DNA from: Archaeoglobus fulgidus DSM 4304
GTDB taxonomy: Archaea > Halobacteriota > Archaeoglobi > Archaeoglobales > Archaeoglobaceae
Direction: 5' to 3'
NCBI RefSeq assembly: GCF_000008665.1
Contig: NC_000917.1
Location: forward strand, 1,260,001-1,292,000
Length of the DNA: 32,000 nucleotides
The notes beneath the pieces were generated by a model. The model saw only the letters and a program-made list of their open reading frames with translations. It was not told the origin of the DNA and made no database searches. This document shows positions 5,348-31,929 of this stretch, piece by piece (the stretch's first letter is position 1; every line of letters begins with the position of its first letter). A program made the position numbers and the translations under genes.

Positions 5348-8300
5348 TTTTTCACCACCCGAATTTCAATGTTCCCTTCGTAGGTGACATCACGGCTTCC
5401 GGTGTAGCTGCGGGTCATCTGGCATTCGCGGTATCCACAATCCCATGTGTAGCTGGTGGATGAGGGAGTAGAGCGTTTTACATTATACTGCCCTCTCACT
5501 TCCTCCCATCTGTCCTCTCCAACTTTCTCAAGGATTATGCATCCCCAGAAGGGGTTTTTATCTGTTACAGACGGGTATGTTTCTACCCACACATTCTGAA
5601 CTTCAGCAAAATTACCCTCGTGGCAGCCCTCTCTCAAATTCGTAGGATTGGTTTCCGGATTCCCGTCATACTGGCAGCCTCCAGAATCGCTGTAAGAGTA
5701 TGTCTCGCTACCGCTCCCCTTCGAAGAGCTCCATGAGACAGTACTCACACTGCTGTATGTGTGGCTGTCAGAGCCTTTCATGCTGAAGCTAAGAGGGACT
5801 GGCGCTATGCAAACAAGCAAATCTCCGCTTGGGGTTTCGTAAACCATTTCAGTTTTCACATCTCCAACATGAGCCGACACCGTTCCGGAGAAGGAGCCCT
5901 GAGAACTCGATGACGAACTCACACTATTATCGCAAAAGCTGCTACTACCTCCTCCGCTATTTTCGCTGTTGTAGAACTTGGATTGTATGAATGTGGCGGT
6001 TGTCCGCTCATCTTCTCCACCCTGCTTCCATGTAGTCTGGGAGGTGAAGAAGTAAGAGTGTCCGCGAGCCTCATTCAGTGTTTTTGAATAACTTCCGCTA
6101 TCAGTCTCCCAGTGACATTCTGAATCATCAGGGCAGCACAGGGCTTGCATTGAATGAGATAGCTCCTCAGTTCCGGATAAACTCGTCACCGAAATCGCAG
6201 ACCACTTGATGAATAATGTGAATTCCTTTTCTTTCACCTTTATGCTCGCTGAATCCCTCACCACTCCGAGTTCGCTTCTATACTCAAAACTCATTCTTGC
6301 AAGCCCCTCCTTCTCCCCGGCAGTATATTTCAGCTTGGCAACACCGTTTTCATCAGTTACGGGATTTCCGGAGGCATCTAACACCCCCGCAGGAGTTAGC
6401 CTGCCGTCAAGAAGCTGATTTCTGCCCACCACTATGGATTTTCCGGCTAAGGGCTCTCTCTCCCCCTTTTCGTTTTCCCTGTAGAGGCTGACCTCCACGA
6501 AGGTTGAGTGTCTTGGGAGTATCTCCCTCTCAGCCTTCACGTCCATCTTCACACCATTTATTTTGATTACCGCGACAGCAGTAGCTTTTTTCATCCCCCT
6601 GCCGAAGGTTACAACTTTAACCAAATCCTCTCCGGCCTCTATGCCTTCTTTGAGCGTGTATTTCGCCACAGCAGTCCCCCCCTCGATCCCCTCTCCAGCT
6701 GTTCTCGTATCTCCAATGACCCACTGGTTGGAGCTAACAATCTCCCCCTCCGTTGAGACTTTCGTAGCTTCCCAATCTGCCCTCACGACTCCCCTTTCCG
6801 TTTCCTTCTGGAAGTAAACCTCCTGCCTCCTCAGCACGTTGCCGAGAGATTCGCTGATCCAGACCGCAGGTTTTCCTCTGCAGTCTGTAACCTTTGCGTA
6901 GATGGTGGCCTCTCTGCTCTCTTCCGAATCAGGTGAAACCGAGTCAGGGACAACCTTGATCTCTATCCTCGGATCTCTCGGCGGAACTGGTCTCTTCATC
7001 TCAAAATCGTCAATTATCTGCCTTAAATCGCCAGTCCTCTGAATTATCAGCCCCACATTGTCCAGAGGATTGCTAACTTCGGTCACATAGTAGTAAGTTT
7101 CAGGAAGTATCGTGCGCTGGGGAAACTCCTGCAGGTCTGCGGTGATGTGGTAGTAATGCATGTCCCCACCAATTTTTATAACGTAGAAGTAATCCGGCAT
7201 GCCGGGATTTCTTAAAGCGGTTTCCGCCTGATTCAGAACCTCAATTAGATCGTTGACGCTGTAAACCTCCACTTCAGGAGACGTGCTCCTCACGAACTCC
7301 GTCGCTCTTGCCGCCAGAAAACTGCTGATTTTAGCTTTGTCAGCTTCTTCAAAGCCCTCAATCCCGTAAAGGAGCTTAATGTCATCTCTGAGCATGTCCA
7401 ACGCAGTGTCGTCCAGAACTACGGCAACACCGACCTTCGGCTTGGAGCATGCGCTAATCCCCTCAAGCCTTATGTATTTTTCAGAAATTTTCTCCACCAG
7501 ATTTCTTCCTTCCAATCCCCACATCTCAAGCCCGGAAGAGCTCCTTTCATACAGGAACTCAAGCTCAAGGTTTCTCGTAACCTTTCTGCCACAATCAGCA
7601 GAAATCAGCGTTAGCGGTATTCGGTAAACCTTCCCGCTTCCGCTGTAAGCCTCCCCCGTCAGGTAGTATTTTCCGGGCTTTATTGTGAAGCTGTAGTCGT
7701 AGTGGTTTCCGCTGATTTCCATTTCCTCGAAATCCATGGTGTAGAAGTCTATCAGCCTGATTCTGCTAAGCACGATTGGAGAGGTGTCATCGGTATATCT
7801 GAGATACGTCCCCTCCACAGTGGAATCTTTGAAGCAGACGTGGAAGGTTGTGATGTCGTCATCCAGAAGCTCTCCTGATTCGTTGTAAAGGCTGCTCCTC
7901 AGGATGTATGTGCCCTCTGTCCAGTCTGCGACAATTTCGTTAAGTGCAACGAAGTAGTCGGAGTGAATTGGGGCGTAATTTTTAATCTCAGGCTCTTCGG
8001 AAAGCACTGGGAGGTATATTCGGTCACCATCCGGGCTTTCCAGCGAGACCATCAGCGTTCCATTCTTCTGGCTACCCGTAAGCATGTGCTCAACCAGAAT
8101 CTCCTGCCCCCTGCTGAAAACATCCCTGTTAACGTAGAGCTTCACTGAAACTTTCTGGCTGTGGTAGATTTTTTCGGTTGAGACGGAAACTTTTTTGCCA
8201 TAGCTGTCAACAATTTTCCCCACCAGCAGGTAAGTGCCCTCTTCCATGCCGTCAAAATCAAGCGTTGACGGAAGCTTTCCGTAGTAGCTTAATTTCAGAT

Positions 8301-24651: not shown

Positions 24652-26295
24652 ATGCCAGTTGTCACGCTTTACTGGGATGAACTCGAAAGGCTCGTTGGGG
24701 CTGACAGGGATACCATTCTTTCCCGCCTCCCCATGCTTGGATGCGATATCGAGAGAGTTGAGGATGACCACGTTGATGTTGAGTTCTTTCCCAACCGCCC
24801 TGATTTGTACAGCGTCGAGGGCGTTGCGAGGGCTTTGAGGGGCTTCCTCGGCATAGAGAAGGGGCTGAAAAGCTACTCTGCAGTCAAAGGAGAGTGGAAG
24901 ATTACAGTTGAGGAGAGCGTTCTTGCGGTGAGGCCGAGAATTGTTGGCTGTGTTGTTAAGGGCATCAGGATGACTGATGAGGTCATCAGAAGCCTCATGG
25001 AGGTTCAGGAGGACCTGCACTGGACAATAGGGAGGAACAGGAGAAAGATGGCCATCGGAGTTCATGATTTGAGCAAGGTTTACTTCCCCCTCCGCTACAA
25101 AGCTGTTGATGCGAACTTCTCCTTTGTTCCCCTTGACTTTGACAGAGAAATGACGGTTGCGGAGATTCTGGAGGAGCATCCCAAGGGAAAGGCATACGCT
25201 TTCATACTCGAAGGGAAGGACAGCTATCCCATGATTGTTGACTCTAAGGATGAAGTAATCTCCTTCCCTCCGATAATAAACGCTGAGAAGACCAGAGTGA
25301 CCGAAGAGACTACAGACCTATTTATCGACGTTACAGGCTTCGACGAGAACGTTGACAGGGCCATTGCCATACTTGCCTGCATGCTCGCAGACAGAGGTGG
25401 CAGAATTGAAAGTGTTGAGGTCGTTTATCCCGACCACGTTGAGCTTACGCCAAATCTTGACGTCAGATTCATGGAAGTTGACGTTGATGAGGTGAACTCC
25501 CTTCTCGGTCTGAGCTTATCTGCAGAAGAAATAAAAGAGTCCCTCGAAAAGATGCGTTTTTCGTGCGAAATTGAGGGGGAGAAGCTGAAGGTGGGAATCC
25601 CTCCCTACAGGGCGGACATAATGCACGAGTGGGATGTTATTGAGGATGTTGCCATAGGCTACGGATACGAGAACATAACCCCAGAAATCCCTCCAACGCT
25701 CACCTTCGGCAGAACTCATCCGTGGAACGACATCAGGAGCCTCGCAAAGGAAATAATGATTGGCCTTGGATTTACCGAGGTTATAACCTTCACCTTAACC
25801 AATGAGGCGGTGATGTACGAAAAGATGAGGAGGAAGGGCGAGCCGTGGAAGGACTACGTGCCTGTTATGCACCCACTCACGACTGAGCACACAATTCTGC
25901 GAACATCCCTACTGCCAAAGCTTCTTGAGCTTCTCTCCTACAACAAGCACCACGAAATGCCCCAGATGGTGTTTGAGGTGGGAGATGTTGTTGTAAACTC
26001 GAAGAACAGGCTGCATTTGGCAGCATGCATCACCCACTCAAGAGCGAACTTTTCCGAAATCAGGAGCTACGTTCAGGCGGTGATGAGGGAGCTTGATTTG
26101 ACATGGGAGGTAAGGGAGTCGGACGATGAAGCCTTCATCGACGGCAGGAGGGCCGAGATAGTTGTTGATGGTAAAGCTGTTGGAGTTTTCGGGGAGGTAC
26201 ATCCTGAGGTCCTTGAAGGCTTTGAGCTTACAATGCCCGTCTCAGCCTTCGAGATTGATTTGTCAGCTTTTTTTGATACAGGAGAGCTGCTATGA
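24652..26295 (+). CDS. pheT: Phenylalanine--tRNA ligase beta subunit (archaeal type), 547 aa
   Basis: The N-terminus [16 protein letters not shown]...[18 protein letters not shown] is typical. The B3/4 and B5 regions include [27 protein letters not shown]. Confidence 0.95.
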
Positions 26296-27434
26296 AGTAT
26301 CTGCTGCTGATTCCGGACGGAATGGCCGACTGGGAGGTGGAGGAGCTTGACGGCAGAACCCCCCTTGAGGTTGCTGAGACTGAGAACATGGACTTCCTCG
26401 CCAAGGAGGGGGCTTGCGGGATAGCAAAAACCGTCCCGGACGGCTTTGAGCCGGGAAGCGATGTTGCCAACCTCACAATTCTGGGAGTTGATGTGAGAAA
26501 GCATTACACGGGAAGGGGGCCTATTGAGGCTCTGGCGAGAGGAGTGAAGGGGAAGCTTGTCTTTCGCTGTAACCTCGTGAAGGTTGAGGATGGAGTGATG
26601 GTGGACTACTCAGGCGGGAGAATAAGCGATGAGGAGGCGAGAAAAGTTATTGAGGAGCTTAACAGGGCAAAGCCCTACGACTTCGTGAAGTTCTACGCCG
26701 GCAAAAGCTACAGAAACCTGCTGGTTATAAACAAAGATTTCAGGGATGACGTAAAAACCTTTCCGCCGCACGACATAACCGGTAAGGAGATTGATAAGCA
26801 CCTGCCCTCCGGTGGAGAGCTTGCAGAGCTTCTTAAAGAGTTGATGGGCTGGTCGGCAGAGATTTTGCCAGAAATTACCGATAAGGCCAACATGATATGG
26901 CCGTGGGGTGGGGGGAGGATGCCATCCTTCCCGAACTTCGGGCAGAGATACGGGCTGAGGGGAGCGATGATTACGGAGGTTGACCTCCTTGAGGGCATAG
27001 CAAGGGGCATGGGCATGGAAGTCGTGCAGGTTGAGGGAATTACCGGCTACATCGACACCAACTACAGGGGGCTTGTGAGGGAGACTGCGAGAGCACTGGA
27101 GGAGCATGATTTCGTTGTACTGCACACAGAGGGTATTGATGAGGTCGGACACGAGGGCGATGCTGAGCTGAAGGTTAGGGCGATTGAGCTTTACGACAGC
27201 AAAATTGTTGGAAAGCTGCTGAACAAAGTTGATCTGGATGAGACAAGAATACTGCTCCTCCCAGACCATCCCACTCCAGTTAAGGTGAAAACGCACGTTG
27301 CTGAACCAGTCCCCTTTACTTTATACGGCAGGGGGAGAGATGAGGTTAAGGTTTACACGGAAAAAAGCTGCAGAAGGGGAAAATTCGGCCTTGTGGATGG
27401 TTTAAGGCTTATGGACTTACTTATAAAAAAATAG
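26292..27434 (+). CDS. apgM: Cofactor-independent (2,3-BPG-independent) phosphoglycerate mutase, archaeal ApgM type, 380 aa
   Basis: Motifs are [17 protein letters not shown] and the metal ligands [13 protein letters not shown] and LLLPDHPTP. Its ATG overlaps the pheT stop (ATGA). Confidence 0.9.
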
Positions 27435-27435
27435 G

Positions 27436-28176
27436 TTACTCTTTGGCCAGATAGTTGTACAGCCATGCCGCAGCTACAGCACCAACAATCGGCCCGATGA
27501 CGTAAATCGGGAAGTACTGCCAGAGGTTTATCCCCATCAGCGAGTCTCCAAGGTATGGCCCGAAGGTTCTCGCGGGGTTGAGCGATGAGCCCGTAATGTT
27601 ACCGATGGTCGTGATGATTCCTCCAACCGTCAGACCTATGACAAGCCCGGCAAATCCCGGAGGGGCGCGCTCGTCAACCGCAACTCCCATTATAACCAGC
27701 ATCAGCAGGAAAGTTCCGATAGCTTCCGTCAGTATCGCCTGTCCGTAGCCTATTCCCGGAAATGGTGCAGTCGCTCCCAGGCCTCCAACCGTTGCTGCTG
27801 CAGGCCCCACACAGGCGAGGAACAGCAGGCTTCCAAGTGCTGCACCAATAAACTGTGCCACTATGTATGGAACCACCTCTCTCCCCGGAAACCTCCCGAT
27901 GCTCCACAGAGCTATCGTCACTGCCGGATTGATGTGAGCACCGCTGATTCTTCCGAGAGAGTAGATGACTGCTGCAATCGCCAGAGCGAAGGCCATTCCT
28001 ATGGCGAACCAGTCTCCAAGACCGCCGAGAGCTCCAATGCCGATGTTGAACTCGTTGGGCTTATCTGCCCCATTTGCAATCATCAGCGTAATTACTGCCG
28101 CACCAGGGCCAAAGAAGACAAGGATAAAGGTTCCAACAACCTCAGCGGTAAAGCGCTTGGCAAGAGTCATAGTCAC
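27436..28176 (-). CDS. aqpM: Aquaporin AqpM (MIP family), 246 aa
   Basis: It has two NPA boxes (SGAHINPAVT and GSSLNPARTFGP) and six hydrophobic helices. The sequence agrees with my memory of the A. fulgidus AqpM. The GTG at 28176 overlaps the upstream stop (GTGA); an alternative ATG at 28170 is preceded by GGAGGAG. Confidence 0.95.
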   Translation of the reverse strand: MTMTLAKRFTAEVVGTFILVFFGPGAAVITLMIANGADKPNEFNIGIGALGGLGDWFAIGMAFALAIAAVIYSLGRISGAHINPAVTIALWSIGRFPGREVVPYIVAQFIGAALGSLLFLACVGPAAATVGGLGATAPFPGIGYGQAILTEAIGTFLLMLVIMGVAVDERAPPGFAGLVIGLTVGGIITTIGNITGSSLNPARTFGPYLGDSLMGINLWQYFPIYVIGPIVGAVAAAWLYNYLAKE

Positions 28177-28382
28177 TCCTCCTGGTAAGCTTCATGGCAG
28201 ATAACACACAGAATTCTCGGCACGGTCTTCTTCATCTTCCTTGCGGGGAAGGGATAGTCTCCCTTCCAGAGAGGAACCTCTTCTCTCACAAGATGCTCCA
28301 TGCAGACTCCCATCCCGCAGACTATGCAGATGGCAACGGCATCAGTATCCTTACCCTGCTCCTTGCAGATGTAGCACTTCAT
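28173..28382 (-). CDS. Small Cys-rich zinc-finger protein (B-box-like; I recall this family as DUF2180), 69-72 aa
   Basis: The sequence is MKCYICKEQGKDTDAVAICIVCGMGVCMEHL...RILCVICHEAY, i.e. CxxC-x11-CxxC-x4-CxxH and a terminal CxxCH. The AGGTGA Shine-Dalgarno spacing favours the ATG at 28382 over the track GTG at 28391 or the ATG at 28388. Confidence 0.6.
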   Translation of the reverse strand: MKCYICKEQGKDTDAVAICIVCGMGVCMEHLVREEVPLWKGDYPFPARKMKKTVPRILCVICHEAYQEE

Positions 28383-28393
28383 TTTCATCACCT

Positions 28394-28407
28394 AAAAATA
28401 AAAAAAA
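28394..28407 (-). terminator. T8-A-T5 run between the 500-aa gene and the zinc-finger gene (possible internal terminator/attenuator)
   Basis: The minus strand reads TTTTTTTTATTTTT within the 20-nt spacer, directly followed by the AGGTGA Shine-Dalgarno. Confidence 0.3.
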
Positions 28408-28411
28408 TAGA

Positions 28412-29914
28412 TTAAACTGCCTCTTTCCACTGGCAGTACGCATGTCTGAAGTCAACAAGCGCTGCTGTTGCGCAGTCCTTGCAGACCCTTGCGGGTGATG
28501 CTGGACTCTCCTTGTGCAGAGCTATGATGTTGGTCATCATCGTCGCAGTGACGGGCTCGCTCGTCAGCAGACACGGGTAGTCTGCGAGCCTCATCAGGGC
28601 GGAGAACCTCACGCTTATTGCGCATCCCGGATAAGCATAGCGCTGCGGGTTCATGAGCACTTCGTTCTCGTGTATCGGGTCGAGGTTAACCTCGAATCCG
28701 CCAACCTTCGGAACAAGCTTCGTTTCAACACCATTTCTGTCCCTTCTCGCCTTATCGAGATACTTCCATCCTCTGTAAATCATGTCCATGAAGTCGTGGT
28801 TGTGAAGCTCTGCAGCACCACCCCTCGTCGGGTAAAGCTGGACGTAGTTGTGGAACCTCTTAGTCAGCAAATCAACAATCATGGGTGCGTTGAACCCATC
28901 AAGCTCAAGGATGTACTCTACCGCTACCGCTCCCGCACCCGTAGCGACGCTGAGGGGCTGGTATTCGCTCTTGAACTTGTCAAGGTTTGCATTCAGCGTT
29001 GAGTCCATCACCGCGCTCGTTGCCTCGATGACTGCCATAACAACGTCGTCCTTGCACATGTTGAAGGTTGATTGGGCAATGTGGTGGGCTGCATCTCCTA
29101 CACAGTATGCTGGCACGGTTACAATGTTCCCGTAGTGCACGCCGTCATCCATTGCCTCCTTTACCGCCCCCTTCATTCTGCTCTTGTACTCAGACATGTA
29201 CTTTCTCACGTCAAAGCTCTGGTGGCCGTGCTCGTCCATAAGCTTGGCCTGTGCCTCAGTTGGCTGGTCGTATACGAGCTTTATCATCTCAATTTCCTTC
29301 TTAATGGCATCGCTCAGCGTTGCACCGTTTTCAATCTCCTTCGCAAACACCTCACCAAAGCCGTAGGAAGTGTTCATGCCCCATGATTTTGAGGCAAGAA
29401 TTGCCTGAGCGTGCTCCTTGGGAATGTCAACCGTCTTCAAAATCCTGTTCACGATGTTGCTCGTGCTTCCCGGAATAAGGGCAAAGTCAACAACACAAGT
29501 CGGGCCGTAAAAGCCTCCGTATCTCCTAACCACCTCAAGACCAATCAGAGCCTCGGCTTTCTCAATTCCCTCGATGAACTTTTCAACGCTCTTCCTAAAG
29601 CTCTCGTCCTCCTCATACAGAATCTCCATGATGGCTGGGGTCTGGTAGTGCTCCACGAAGGGGTCGTCCTCTGGCCTTACTGTCTTCGTGAGACTCCTAA
29701 GAATTTCGTAGTGCGCGTTTACGCTGTCAACATGCAGCCTTATAACTGCCTTGCTTTGATTTCCAACTGCCTTCATCTGGTTTACTGCATCTACGTAGGG
29801 CTTCACGTCGTCTATGACGAACTCTTTTCCTCTCTTCTCCTTAATCACATTCACATCCGCCCACTGGGCGGCCATGGCTTCCTTAACCATTTTCTCAATT
29901 ACTTCCTCTGCCAT
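28412..29914 (-). CDS. Conserved uncharacterised ~500-aa protein (I recall this family as DUF2193), cytoplasmic
   Basis: It is a long clean ORF with no signal peptide or transmembrane helix. Distinctive blocks are GGFYGPTCVVDFALIPGSTSN, SWGMNTSYGFG, VPAYCVGDAAHHIAQSTFNMC, YPTRGGAAELHNHDFMD and a C-terminal CKDCATAALVDFRHAYCQW. I recognise no catalytic family. Confidence 0.7.
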   Translation of the reverse strand: MAEEVIEKMVKEAMAAQWADVNVIKEKRGKEFVIDDVKPYVDAVNQMKAVGNQSKAVIRLHVDSVNAHYEILRSLTKTVRPEDDPFVEHYQTPAIMEILYEEDESFRKSVEKFIEGIEKAEALIGLEVVRRYGGFYGPTCVVDFALIPGSTSNIVNRILKTVDIPKEHAQAILASKSWGMNTSYGFGEVFAKEIENGATLSDAIKKEIEMIKLVYDQPTEAQAKLMDEHGHQSFDVRKYMSEYKSRMKGAVKEAMDDGVHYGNIVTVPAYCVGDAAHHIAQSTFNMCKDDVVMAVIEATSAVMDSTLNANLDKFKSEYQPLSVATGAGAVAVEYILELDGFNAPMIVDLLTKRFHNYVQLYPTRGGAAELHNHDFMDMIYRGWKYLDKARRDRNGVETKLVPKVGGFEVNLDPIHENEVLMNPQRYAYPGCAISVRFSALMRLADYPCLLTSEPVTATMMTNIIALHKESPASPARVCKDCATAALVDFRHAYCQWKEAV

Positions 29915-29953
29915 GAGGTATAATTGTCATAATCGACCATCACTGTTTTGGCG

Positions 29954-30030
29954 TACATGTAAGCCCGGCGGGATGGACATCTCCAAAGAATTGAACGACA
30001 AATGGTAGGGTAAAAATCGCGGACATGTCC
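29954..30030. promoter_or_regulatory. Three related palindromic sites (TACATGTA, TGGACATCTCCA, GGACATGTCC) upstream of the 500-aa gene; candidate operators
   Basis: I read them directly at 29954-29961, 29974-29985 and 30021-30030. They share an ACAT(G/C)T core and lie in the 143-bp spacer between the HTH_10 regulator gene and the 500-aa gene. Confidence 0.4.
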
Positions 30031-30057
30031 ACCGGGTCATAATTAAATCATTATCAT

Positions 30058-30711
30058 TTAAAACAATTCTACCGACTTTTCGAGCTCCTTTTCCTGAATG
30101 TACCTCTCTACGAGCTTTGAAATCGCAATTTTAAGGTGCTTGTGTGCAGTGCTCTTCGCAACTCCCAGAGCCATCGCGATGTCGTTAATTGTCACATCCC
30201 TTTTTTCCGAGAAGTATCCGAGGTCGTAGGCGATTTTTAAAGCCCTCCTCTGCGCCTCTGTTAGGCCTGCTTTCCTCTCTCCTATGCTTTTTATCTCGAT
30301 CACCTTCCAGTTTCCAACCTTGTTCAGGTTCTCGTACGCCTTCGGAAGGTAGCTCGTGCTCGGAACTATGATTTCGTAAATCTTGCTTCCGTCTTCAACG
30401 AGTATCGGAGTTTTTATAAAGCAGTATGAGCTCTCAAAAGCTTTAATACCTGTTGTATCGCTTACAACTGCGATAAAGCTCGCCTCTATTGGGGTCTTCT
30501 CAAGAATCTGAACAAACTTCGTGTTCGGATGTCTCTCAACCTCCTTTATGTAGTCTGTAACATTTTCGGCGTCAACAACTTTAACCAGAAAGAGAGCATC
30601 CTCGTCATTCAGGAGTATGTAAGAGATTATTTCAGCCCGTACCGGGCACCTTTTGGTTGCGACAGCAAGGGAGCACCGATGCTGGTCCACCCTGACTTTG
30701 AGAAGATACAT
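30058..30711 (-). CDS. HTH_10 (Bat-type, COG3413-like) archaeal DNA-binding transcription regulator, 217 aa
   Basis: The C-terminal motif LTEAQRRALKIAYDLGYFSEKRDVTINDIAMALGVAKSTAHKHLKIAISKLV is the classical HTH_10 signature. The ~150-aa N-terminal domain is probably a sensor or dimerisation domain. Confidence 0.75.
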   Translation of the reverse strand: MYLLKVRVDQHRCSLAVATKRCPVRAEIISYILLNDEDALFLVKVVDAENVTDYIKEVERHPNTKFVQILEKTPIEASFIAVVSDTTGIKAFESSYCFIKTPILVEDGSKIYEIIVPSTSYLPKAYENLNKVGNWKVIEIKSIGERKAGLTEAQRRALKIAYDLGYFSEKRDVTINDIAMALGVAKSTAHKHLKIAISKLVERYIQEKELEKSVELF

Positions 30712-30934: not shown

Positions 30935-31414
30935 TTAACTTTCAAATTTTCTTAAGAACCTCGTCATGTTCTTCCAGTGTCCCCCCATCCAGTAGAGCTT
31001 TCTGCACTTCTCGCAGTACCAGAGTTCAAATTCGAGCATGTCTTCGGACAGCTTTTCCCTCTCAATGACCTCCATTGCCTCCTCCCTGCTCGGCTTTCTC
31101 AGCGGAGTGTTGCAGAGGCTGCACCTGTCCATGACAATCTGGAACTTCACACCTCTCTCCATCAGCTCCCTCATCTGCCCCTCTAAGGAGTCAGACCTTA
31201 TCAGAATGGCTTTTCTCCCCTCCTTAACGCTTTTTCTGTAGAGCTCCCTATCCTTGGTGAGCAGAATCCTATCCCTCAAGTTCCTCAGCATGAACTCATC
31301 TTCCTCTTCATCAAATTCAAGCTCGGAAACGCTTACAGTATCGTAGCCTGAGATTCTCAGCCACCGCGTCAGCCTTCCGAGCATTCTGTCGGTCAGAAAC
31401 TTCATCTCCACCAT
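30935..31414 (-). CDS. Mut7-C-type (PIN-like) RNase domain protein with C-terminal zinc ribbon, 156-159 aa
   Basis: KFLTDRMLGRLTRWLRISGYDT is the Mut7-C/DUF82 N-terminal signature. The zinc ribbon is CSLCN...YCEKCRKLYWMGGHW. The ATG at 31405 forms an ATGA overlap with the upstream HD gene stop and follows GGTGGAG, so the true start is probably 31405. Confidence 0.75.
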   Translation of the reverse strand: MVEMKFLTDRMLGRLTRWLRISGYDTVSVSELEFDEEEDEFMLRNLRDRILLTKDRELYRKSVKEGRKAILIRSDSLEGQMRELMERGVKFQIVMDRCSLCNTPLRKPSREEAMEVIEREKLSEDMLEFELWYCEKCRKLYWMGGHWKNMTRFLRKFES

Positions 31415-31929
31415 ACCGGATTTTTCCTCTCCATGAGCACTCTGTAAATCTCCTTCGCTGCATCAGTTTTGAGCTCCACGTTCTCGGCAAACCTTATCGC
31501 GTAGCTTACCTGCTGCGAGTACTCTACTCCCTGAAACGCAAGCTCAAGCTTGTCCGCATCGCTAACGTAAACTTCAACGTCCGAAAAATCGGGCTTGGAT
31601 TCCATCCAGGAGAGCTGCTCCTCCCTTGCTCCTTCTTCATCGCAGCTAACGTATCGCCGGGCTATTTTGTGCAAGTCCATCGTCCTCGCCTCGTGCAGGT
31701 CGTGGAAAAGGGCGGCGGTTGCTGCCTTGCAGGCCTTCTCGACGCTCTCACCGCTTTTTAATGCGAGGATGAAGGCTATGATTGCCGCTCTGAAGCTGTG
31801 CTCCGCGACGCTTTCCGGCAGCCTTATACCGAGCTTCAGCCAGCCCGATCTCGGAGTCAGCTTGAGCGAACCAACCTCGTGAATGAACTTAACGACGTCA
31901 TCCATAGGCTTAATAATGCACATTGCCAA
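31402..31929 (-). CDS. HD-domain hydrolase, YfbR/HDDC2-like 5'-deoxynucleotidase family, 175 aa
   Basis: Motifs are RSGWLKLGI..PESVAEHSFRAAIIAFILA and LFHDLHEARTMDL (H...HD...D metal ligands). Confidence 0.75.
   Translation of the reverse strand: MAMCIIKPMDDVVKFIHEVGSLKLTPRSGWLKLGIRLPESVAEHSFRAAIIAFILALKSGESVEKACKAATAALFHDLHEARTMDLHKIARRYVSCDEEGAREEQLSWMESKPDFSDVEVYVSDADKLELAFQGVEYSQQVSYAIRFAENVELKTDAAKEIYRVLMERKNPVWWR

Follow-up and report, generated by a model that had tools for sequence, protein, structure and literature searches.

Does the archaeal aquaporin AqpM act as a lone pore, or does it work with partners? Since 2003 AqpM has served as the reference aquaporin of archaea, and the substrates put forward for it are water, glycerol, CO2, and H2S. 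We took up this question in a stretch of 32,000 nucleotides from Archaeoglobus fulgidus DSM 4304 (contig NC_000917.1, positions 1,260,001 to 1,292,000; the window below, with positions counted from its first letter). Here the aqpM gene is the last in a strictly conserved block encoding an iron-sulfur protein, a tiny metal-finger protein, and the channel. AqpM, we suggest, probably works with these two cytoplasmic metalloproteins.

The DUF2193-DUF2180-MIP block

An initial annotation of the window, made from the sequence alone, had placed four minus-strand open reading frames (ORFs) here (30711-30058, 29914-28412, 28391/28382-28173, and 28176-27436) and had expected the families HTH_10, DUF2193, DUF2180, and MIP. 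All four ORFs are present, and a Pfam profile search returned all four families. The last gene was rightly called AqpM, with 100% identity to PDB 3NE2 over 246 amino acids (aa). Because the MIP protein is identical to PDB 3NE2 and one database source labels the DUF2180 family "zinc finger protein, AF1427," the locus is AF1429-AF1426 of A. fulgidus, on the minus strand.

We sampled one genome per species; among the 495 genomes that encoded a relative of DUF2193, we kept the 80 best loci, drawn from Archaeoglobi, Methanothrix, Methanobacteriaceae, and Methanomicrobiales. DUF2180 lies directly downstream of DUF2193 on the same strand in 80/80 genome loci, and a MIP gene follows DUF2180 in 79 of the 80, the remaining locus stopping at a contig edge inside DUF2180. 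A metagenome sample was anchored on DUF2180 instead (524 relatives, 80 retained, each judged only where its flank sufficed). DUF2193 was directly upstream in 77/78 of these loci and MIP directly downstream in 76/77, the single exception being an orphan DUF2180 on an AT-rich methanogen contig. The cassette occurs in Archaeoglobi, Methanobacteriales, Methanomicrobiales, Methanotrichales, and Methanococcus maripaludis. Beyond the three genes there is no cross-lineage conservation, and the flanks are clade-specific housekeeping genes.

An order and strand that recur in all 80 species genomes (four archaeal orders) amid differing flanks go far beyond what chance would produce. The three genes behave as one self-contained unit, of which DUF2180 is a near-obligate third member. 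The channel had been described as hard-wired to a 500-aa and a 70-aa protein; both families do co-occur with MIP genes, and the linkage is near-absolute whether DUF2193 or DUF2180 is taken as the anchor. We regard inherited synteny or selfish co-transfer without joint function as a very improbable account of it. That account can point to M. maripaludis, in which the DUF2193 and channel genes are non-essential (PMC12375889), and it has to explain why order, strand, and 0-10 nt coupling are kept across four orders while every flank changes. A version in which the small genes only aid folding or insertion of the channel is just as improbable: AqpM from two species (PDB 3NE2 and 2F2B) expresses and crystallizes alone and so requires no assembly factor.

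Several cassettes depart from the common pattern. In the metagenome loci L108, L163, and L170, the upstream DUF2193 aligned as a fragment only (residues 386-500, 5-72, and 449-500, with 44-47% identity in L163 and L170), and these may be decayed or very divergent cassettes. In Methanothrix species (L015-L018), DUF2193 shares 81-82% identity with the A. fulgidus protein, compared with 78% in some Archaeoglobus species, and only 8-10 nucleotides (nt) separate its gene from DUF2180; the cassette may therefore have moved horizontally from one lineage to another. Four Methanothrix cassettes have DsrE beside them.

The gene junctions had been read correctly, with 20 nt after DUF2193 and either a GTGA overlap or TGA-CT-ATG between DUF2180 and the channel gene. 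The DUF2193 TAA is followed by a 20-nt T-rich spacer and then by GTG-ATG-AAA-ATG. The 3' end of DUF2180 reads GAGGAG-TGA-CT-ATG, which offers the channel either a GTG that overlaps the stop codon (GTGA, as in 3NE2) or an ATG 2 nt further on. The length of DUF2180 homologs (68-70 aa) favors a start at ATG 28382, giving 69 aa. For the channel, ATG 28170 is the likely start rather than GTG 28176, because homologs share the N terminus M-[ST]-L-x-K-R and the closest relatives do not keep the in-frame GTG.

Across the cassettes, the median spacing between the end of DUF2180 and the ATG of the channel gene is 2 nt (no more than 10 nt in 71/79 loci), and a Shine-Dalgarno (SD)-like motif sits inside the DUF2180 3' end in 78/79. 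Because the ribosome-binding site of the channel thus lies within the end of DUF2180, the two genes are translationally coupled; this coupling, already proposed for A. fulgidus, is borne out and conserved. The DUF2193-DUF2180 gap is longer (median 35 nt, range 8-113), with GGTGA or GGAGG ahead of the DUF2180 start in nearly all loci. A run of five or more T within 60 nt past the MIP stop was found in 65/75 loci (18/18 in Archaeoglobi), against 14% of random windows, and we read this oligo-T tract as the probable terminator that closes the unit. With short same-strand gaps, SD motifs before both downstream genes, and oligo-T at the end, the three genes look like one same-strand operon-like unit.

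A T run of the same minimum length also occurs in the DUF2193-DUF2180 gap in 20/20 Archaeoglobi loci and in 41/79 overall. Because oligo-T is known to act in archaeal transcription termination, this tract could be a lineage-specific internal attenuator that ends part of the transcripts. We also considered it as the TATA box of a promoter. This is unlikely because the SD motif sits between the tract and the ATG, and a transcript bearing the DUF2180 SD must begin upstream of it.

The channel itself is AfAQP, the protein solved as 3NE2, and belongs with AqpM of Methanothermobacter marburgensis (2EVU/2F2B; E=3e-109). AF1426 matches PF00230 (1.2e-47) and TIGR00861 (214 bits, cut-off 171); NCBIfam assigned it to a generic MIP subfamily only, with AqpZ, Gla, and LarD scores far under their cut-offs. 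It has two NPA motifs (HINPAVT and SLNPART) and an aromatic/arginine (ar/R) filter of F63, I188, S197, and R203, the counterpart of F62, I187, S196, and R202 in the M. marburgensis channel (PMC6912568). In all 79 cassette channels the filter reads F-I-(S/A/G/T)-R, only its third residue varying, and pore chemistry is therefore constant across them. Earlier work treated AqpM as a lone pore and, in the literature we searched, left its constant gene partners aside. Among loci anchored on DUF2193 or DUF2180, in every major lineage sampled, the aqpM gene is almost never alone: a Cys7His finger is apparently co-translated with it, and a fold-orphan iron-sulfur protein is encoded ahead.

The channel type varies within Archaeoglobus. 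Four loci (L019, L020, L102, and L104) have a divergent 234-aa MIP that is 46-51% identical to AfAqpM and misses part of the AqpM loop; their DUF2193 is still 78% identical and the F-I-x-R filter is retained. This combination suggests that the channel was replaced within some Archaeoglobus cassettes. In L020, QmoC is encoded a short way downstream, on the opposite strand.

The DUF2193 and DUF2180 proteins

The initial annotation knew of no function for the two upstream families and considered the system genuinely undescribed, a view that is out of date. In Methanococcus voltae, the DUF2193 protein Mvol_0354 is more abundant on pyrite, and the motif CX2CX6DX2(H/C)X2C has been pointed out (Payne et al. 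2022, PMC9431491). Dieter et al. (2025, FEBS Lett, PMC12375889) reported that its induction on pyrite is 13-fold and that the protein binds one labile [4Fe-4S] cluster per subunit, shifts from apo tetramer to holo monomer in vitro, and carries a redox-active intramolecular disulfide. They also found 91% of methanogen DUF2193 homologs near a MIP, aquaporin, or GlpF gene and proposed that the protein carries iron-sulfur and acts in sensing or regulation. Both the DUF2193-MIP pair and iron-sulfur (Fe-S) binding by DUF2193 are thus already published.

With that methanogen pair the A. fulgidus locus shares a 73% identical ortholog, the C-terminal motif, and adjacency to an AqpM-type MIP. It differs by adding DUF2180, which is lost in M. 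voltae and absent from both papers, and an HTH_10 regulator; its host is a sulfate reducer rather than a methanogen, and among the A. fulgidus proteins the channel is the one studied biochemically. A literature search found no published report of the near-obligate DUF2180, its coupling to the channel, or its co-variation with DUF2193; of the constant ar/R filter or the loss of DUF2180 in M. voltae; or of the Archaeoglobi regulator with its palindromes or the missing solved relatives of the two DUF families. The locus is a real, strongly conserved system, a variant of a recently recognized kind.

AF1428 matches PF09959 over its full length (926 bits; residues 4-500 on profile positions 2-498). 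Its C-terminal CKDCATAALVDFRHAYC fits the published motif exactly, as C478-K-D-C481-ATAALV-D488-FR-H491-AY-C494. C478, C481, H491, and C494 are invariant in the canonical DUF2193 clade, and Asp488 is present in most sequences. This tail, with three Cys and His491/Asp488, is predicted to be a site-differentiated cluster site. From the 73% identity between AF1428 and the cluster-binding M. voltae ortholog, we infer that AF1428 binds one [4Fe-4S] and is a tetramer as apoprotein and a monomer as holoprotein. For DUF2193 proteins without the extra tail Cys, we considered DUF2180 as donor of the fourth cluster ligand and rejected this, as the CX2CX3C variant occurs with and without DUF2180.

DUF2193 is a small and isolated family: 160 representatives only were found among 1.84 billion proteins, every one DUF2193. 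Searches by sequence, by profile, and by Foldseek of the model found no relative in the PDB, and AF1428 belongs to no characterized enzyme family. None of the findings that the initial annotation had named as refuting its reading turned up. An AlphaFold2 (AF2) model of AF1428 is all-alpha (predicted local distance difference test [pLDDT] 80.7; predicted TM-score [pTM] 0.84). Confidence is low in exactly the loops that hold conserved Cys and His (137-146, 355-368, 427-432, and 474-500), as would be expected in the model if folding depended on a cofactor. DUF2193 proteins of Archaeoglobus are 72-76% identical to those of Methanococcus or Methanobacterium, and an alignment of 40 sequences has more than 150 invariant positions, among them eight Cys and eight His. 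Two DUF2193 genes are interrupted by in-frame TAG and otherwise intact, at the Asp of the LDPIH motif in L028 (Methanothrix) and by CAG->TAG at invariant Q281 in L058 (Methanobacteriaceae); they could be pseudogenes or errors in metagenome-assembled genomes, and recoding is conceivable for the Methanothrix gene.

Full-length DUF2193 clades at 30-47% identity (L083-L091 and L176) lack both MIP and DUF2180. One context was sampled per clade. P0180 lies with TusA and a POR subunit; P0182 sits in a metal/Fe-S gene cluster (cation efflux, NifU_N, P-type ATPase, ABC), its 3' end overlapping by 4 nt the start of a bona fide glycerol-1-phosphate dehydrogenase gene. P0183 is 1 nt past an AFOR gene, behind Mtr and Mer; P0184 follows an ABC importer, Zn-ADH, and Ldh_2; P0186 overlaps an MtrH-family methyltransferase gene; and P0193 is ahead of an MFS transporter. 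Because these paralogs sit in other contexts without MIP, the DUF2193 fold is not intrinsically a channel accessory, and it recurs beside transporters, redox enzymes, and sulfur/Fe-S carriers. Most paralogs keep the tail motif, with Cys replacing His491, and lose the other cysteines of the canonical clade. The polar core H68, Q91, D143, E207, N263, H278, D289, and D290 is retained even at 30-40% identity. Identity of at least 72% across classes, more than 150 invariant positions, and this polar core support an enzyme-like or ligand-binding character for DUF2193. A small gene before the most divergent DUF2193 (L176) was checked as a DUF2180 analog and dismissed, its product being a hydrophobic peptide with a single Cys.

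These contexts bear on one alternative, in which DUF2193 is an Fe-S enzyme, for example a hydro-lyase, acting on a small organic permeant (a C1-C3 alcohol, aldehyde, or acid) unrelated to Fe/S supply. We consider this unlikely. Three Cys with a His or Asp would suit such an enzyme; the paralogs are coupled to glycerol-1-phosphate dehydrogenase, AFOR, Zn-ADH with Ldh_2, and MtrH-family/Mer/Mtr proteins, with ABC or MFS transporters adjoining; and the family is confined to archaea with H4MPT/F420 C1 chemistry. The pore of AqpM argues otherwise, with a radius of ~1.4 Å and poor glycerol conduction (PMC6912568, PMC3287591), as does induction on pyrite, which points to Fe/S (PMC9431491), and the contexts amount to one per paralog clade sampled.

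The third member, AF1427, matches PF09947 with 135 bits (7.7e-40). C3, C6, C19, C22, C27, C59, and C62 are invariant among DUF2180 proteins, and H30 is at least 90% conserved. These seven Cys and one His suggest ligands sufficient for two tetrahedral metal sites. In its confident AF2 model (pLDDT 92), metal knuckles are joined by a long beta-hairpin and, at the C terminus, a helix. The protein had been called B-box-like, which did not hold: there was no Pfam B-box match, the Midline-1 B-box scored E=8.1 and PHD fingers E=0.3-6, and no B-box or PHD domain was among the 50 Foldseek matches listed. Foldseek matches were weak and led by zinc-ribbon ribosomal proteins such as eS26 (TM-score ~0.5, E ~0.3), and they gave no solved structural relative; Pfam gave a faint match to the FmdE treble-clef finger (E=0.0076). 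A full-text literature search returned nothing on DUF2180, including no metal-binding experiment.

A few fringe DUF2180 genes stand outside the cassette. L172/L173 (5264-7174) hold a stand-alone 87-aa variant with a hairpin insertion, followed by ~1.9 kb without a called gene or convincing ORF. A fringe DUF2180 adjoins rubrerythrin. The 408-aa protein after another (L174) was compared with DUF2193 as a cryptic member and rejected (hhalign probability 2%).

Which protein does the finger belong with? In a mirror-tree test on 128 non-identical triplets, the distances of DUF2180 and DUF2193 correlated at r=0.71, with a partial r of 0.63 given MIP; between DUF2180 and the channel, the partial r given DUF2193 was only 0.085. 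The comparison is crude, being confounded by shared descent and occasional channel replacement. Because its distances follow those of DUF2193 and hardly those of the channel, the finger seems to belong functionally with DUF2193, though it is made in step with the channel.

This result weighs on a second alternative, an Fe-S-gated channel, in which the apo-DUF2193 tetramer docks via DUF2180 on the AqpM tetramer and opens or plugs its pores until cluster binding releases the monomer. DUF2193 would then be a sensor rather than an enzyme or carrier, and permeability would follow the Fe-S or redox state. We know of no gating of AqpM, and we regard both the mechanism and the sensor role as doubtful. 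The oligomer switch and a redox-dependent disulfide have been shown in vitro by authors who favor a sensing or regulatory role (PMC12375889), a DUF2193 tetramer matches the tetrameric MIP channel (PMC3287591), and DUF2180 is co-translated with the channel. Against gating, DUF2180 co-varies with DUF2193 and not with the channel, a swapped channel type left it without noticeable change, DUF2193 paralogs occur without any MIP, and more than 150 invariant residues over 500 aa exceed the apparent need of a docking sensor. The comparison of DUF2193 with FNR and IscR (PMC12375889) is apt in that cluster occupancy alters the oligomeric state; DUF2193 differs in that it lacks a DNA-binding domain and resembles neither in sequence, and its switch runs the other way, the holo form being the monomer.

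DUF2193 biochemistry comes from a single species, and its cassette is incomplete. In M. voltae, DUF2180 is gone from between DUF2193 and MIP, and a 345-nt AT-rich gap is found instead (L081 6500-6845; L082 6500-6815). The gap is non-coding, contains a 10-nt tandem repeat (attaaaatag x4), and holds at most a doubtful remnant of the DUF2180 C terminus (E=0.13). M. maripaludis has the full triad, with DUF2180 at L175 4536-4751 and an ATGA overlap between DUF2180 and the channel gene, so the idea that Methanococcus lacks DUF2180 can be set aside: the loss is specific to M. voltae. Because DUF2180 was lost there and kept in M. maripaludis, M. voltae, the source of all DUF2193 biochemistry, is an atypical organism. 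The oligomeric switch described in this finger-less species may miss the natural partner. Around the M. maripaludis cassette, genes for a thioredoxin reductase-like protein, a thioredoxin, and a DsbD-type membrane protein lie divergently upstream (L175 1-2660), and a gene for an FmdE-domain zinc-finger protein lies downstream (5899-6516).

Proposed function of the cassette

Some MIP genes lie in substrate-specific operons, as with GlpF-GlpK, LarD in lar, AqpS in ars, and PduF in pdu. The cassette resembles these by analogy, as a MIP co-expressed with cytoplasmic proteins acting on the permeant; DUF2193 and DUF2180 are not homologous to the partner enzymes. We propose that AF1428-AF1427-AF1426, the A. 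fulgidus copy of the three-gene cassette, would act as a "channel plus cytoplasmic trap," after GlpF with GlpK. DUF2193 would carry a labile [4Fe-4S] cluster on its C-terminal tail, with C478, C481, C494, and either H491 or D488 as ligands. The 69-aa Cys7His finger would bind two metal ions, partner DUF2193, and be made in step with the channel. Together they would form a cytoplasmic metalloprotein pair that captures or converts a small uncharged solute delivered by the narrow hydrophobic AqpM pore. The leading candidate would be a sulfur species such as sulfide, feeding iron-sulfur supply, given the 13-fold increase of DUF2193 in M. voltae forced to live on pyrite. We give this model as a whole, a channel with a metalloprotein pair that captures or converts the permeant and is tied to Fe/S supply, a probability of roughly 0.4.

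In addition to the evidence above, the model draws on the genes found near DUF2193 paralogs (TusA, NifU_N, ABC and MFS transporters, AFOR, and POR) and on DsrE by the four Methanothrix cassettes. Several points weigh against it. The paralog contexts are few and mixed, and several concern alcohol, aldehyde, or C1 redox rather than sulfur. The co-variation test is crude, as given above. M. voltae keeps DUF2193 and MIP without DUF2180, which makes the finger dispensable in at least one lineage. H2S passes lipid bilayers freely. AfAQP gave no measurable H2S facilitation in proteoliposomes, according to Mathai 2009 as relayed in PMC3287591 and PMC6912568, and the M. maripaludis genes are, as noted, non-essential. 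The module had been suggested to serve uptake, detoxification, or gating; the data favor none of the three.

An oxidant or thiol-redox module is a third alternative. The channel would pass an H2O2-like oxidant, DUF2193 and a rubredoxin-like DUF2180 would reduce or sense it, and the HTH_10 protein would be a thiol sensor. It draws on the redox-active disulfides of M. voltae DUF2193 and its predicted partners (FMN- and rubredoxin-like, oxidative-stress mitigation; PMC12375889), on a desulfoferrodoxin-linked cluster that is also up on pyrite (PMC9431491), on the thioredoxin reductase, thioredoxin, and DsbD genes of M. maripaludis, on a flavodoxin-PNPOx fusion in Methanobacteriaceae, on the fringe DUF2180 next to rubrerythrin, and on two invariant Cys in the regulator. 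We find it improbable, as these redox neighbors are clade-specific and mostly on the opposite strand, and no peroxidase-like motif or fold appeared in profile or Foldseek searches. The flavodoxin-PNPOx fusion lies near Methanobacteriaceae cassettes.

Returning to the channel with a trapping pair, we also considered a more specific form, to which we assign a low probability. AqpM would be the entry port of an archaeal acquisition machine and not primarily a water pore; the apo-DUF2193 tetramer would dock beneath the AqpM tetramer via DUF2180, build or load its labile [4Fe-4S] cluster from a pore-delivered sulfur or iron-sulfur species, and leave as a cluster-donating holo monomer. If true, this would be a new channel-coupled Fe-S supply route in strict anaerobes with minimal SUF/ISC machinery. 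Any channel-coupled supply of sulfur or iron-sulfur, if true, would bear on how strict anaerobes meet their very high Fe-S demand. With defined gene partners, the long-standing question of the role of AqpM becomes directly testable.

Regulator, feature coordinates, and neighboring genes

The initial annotation had placed the unit under a dedicated, co-oriented regulator. AF1429 is an HTH_10 protein (PF04967, 72 bits against a cut-off of 23), and each of the 20 Archaeoglobi genome loci has an ortholog of it next to the cassette, as do 30 loci in total. Among the sampled methanogen genome loci, none has an HTH_10 gene beside the cassette. The dedicated role is thus plausible for Archaeoglobi only, where adjacency bears it out, and does not extend to methanogens. 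Co-orientation is not the rule either: the gene is divergent in 22 of the 30 loci and co-oriented in 8, which make up the A. fulgidus clade.

AF1429 shares the C-terminal HTH_10 domain (PF04967) with Bat-type archaeal regulators. It differs in its N terminus, 145 residues for which we found no Pfam family or PDB relative, and in its putative target operon and palindrome, which are specific to Archaeoglobi. C13 and C96 are invariant in 20 orthologs, compatible with a thiol-based sensor. The shared upstream region of Archaeoglobi loci contains two or three copies of GGACATGTCC and close variants. With at most one mismatch, GGACATGTCC matched 17 times within 200 nt upstream of DUF2193 (~4 kb in all) against once in the remaining ~223 kb of these loci; in the 32-kb window, it matched only at 30021-30030 and 29975-29984. 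In Archaeoglobi, the adjacent HTH_10 protein with its two invariant Cys would control the unit through these palindromes, and AF1429 probably does so through the two candidate operators. A literature search for AF1426-AF1429 by locus tag, and for expression of these genes, returned nothing relevant, including no transcript data for the locus.

Table 1. Features of the A. fulgidus cassette and its upstream region, in window coordinates
Feature	Position	Strand	Details
HTH_10-family regulator AF1429	30058..30711	-	217 aa; PF04967 2.7e-20, residues 150-202
Palindrome GGACATGTCC, exact, candidate operator site 1	30021..30030	strandless	Upstream enrichment in Archaeoglobi loci
Palindrome variant GGAGATGTCC, 1 mismatch, candidate operator site 2	29975..29984	strandless	Pattern scan
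Half-site ACATGTACGCCAAAA, conserved, ~35-45 nt before DUF2193 start	29946..29960	-	Found by eye in Archaeoglobi upstream regions, without statistics
DUF2193 protein AF1428	28412..29914	-	500 aa, predicted all-alpha; PF09959 5e-279
T-rich spacer (T8 + T5 runs) after DUF2193 stop, possible internal attenuator/terminator	28392..28411	-	
Shine-Dalgarno-like GGTGA, 5 nt ahead of DUF2180 ATG	28388..28392	-	
DUF2180 protein AF1427	28173..28382	-	69 aa; PF09947 7.7e-40
GGAGGAG, putative Shine-Dalgarno of channel gene, within last DUF2180 codons	28176..28182	-	
AqpM-type MIP channel AF1426	27436..28170	-	PF00230/TIGR00861; annotated and crystallized start is GTG 28176
T7 run 4 nt past channel stop, probable terminator	27425..27431	-	T5+ enrichment after MIP

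Downstream, the channel gene and a convergent apgM-like gene (26292-27434; cofactor-independent phosphoglycerate mutase or "proposed homoserine kinase") end 1 nt apart, and the T7 run at 27425-27431 is the complement of the last two Lys codons of that gene. Upstream of the regulator and on its strand, genes for a Mut7-C RNase-domain protein (30935-31414) and an HD-domain, 5'-deoxynucleotidase-like protein (31402-31929) share 13 nt, and outside A. fulgidus the pair is confined to its closest Archaeoglobus relatives.

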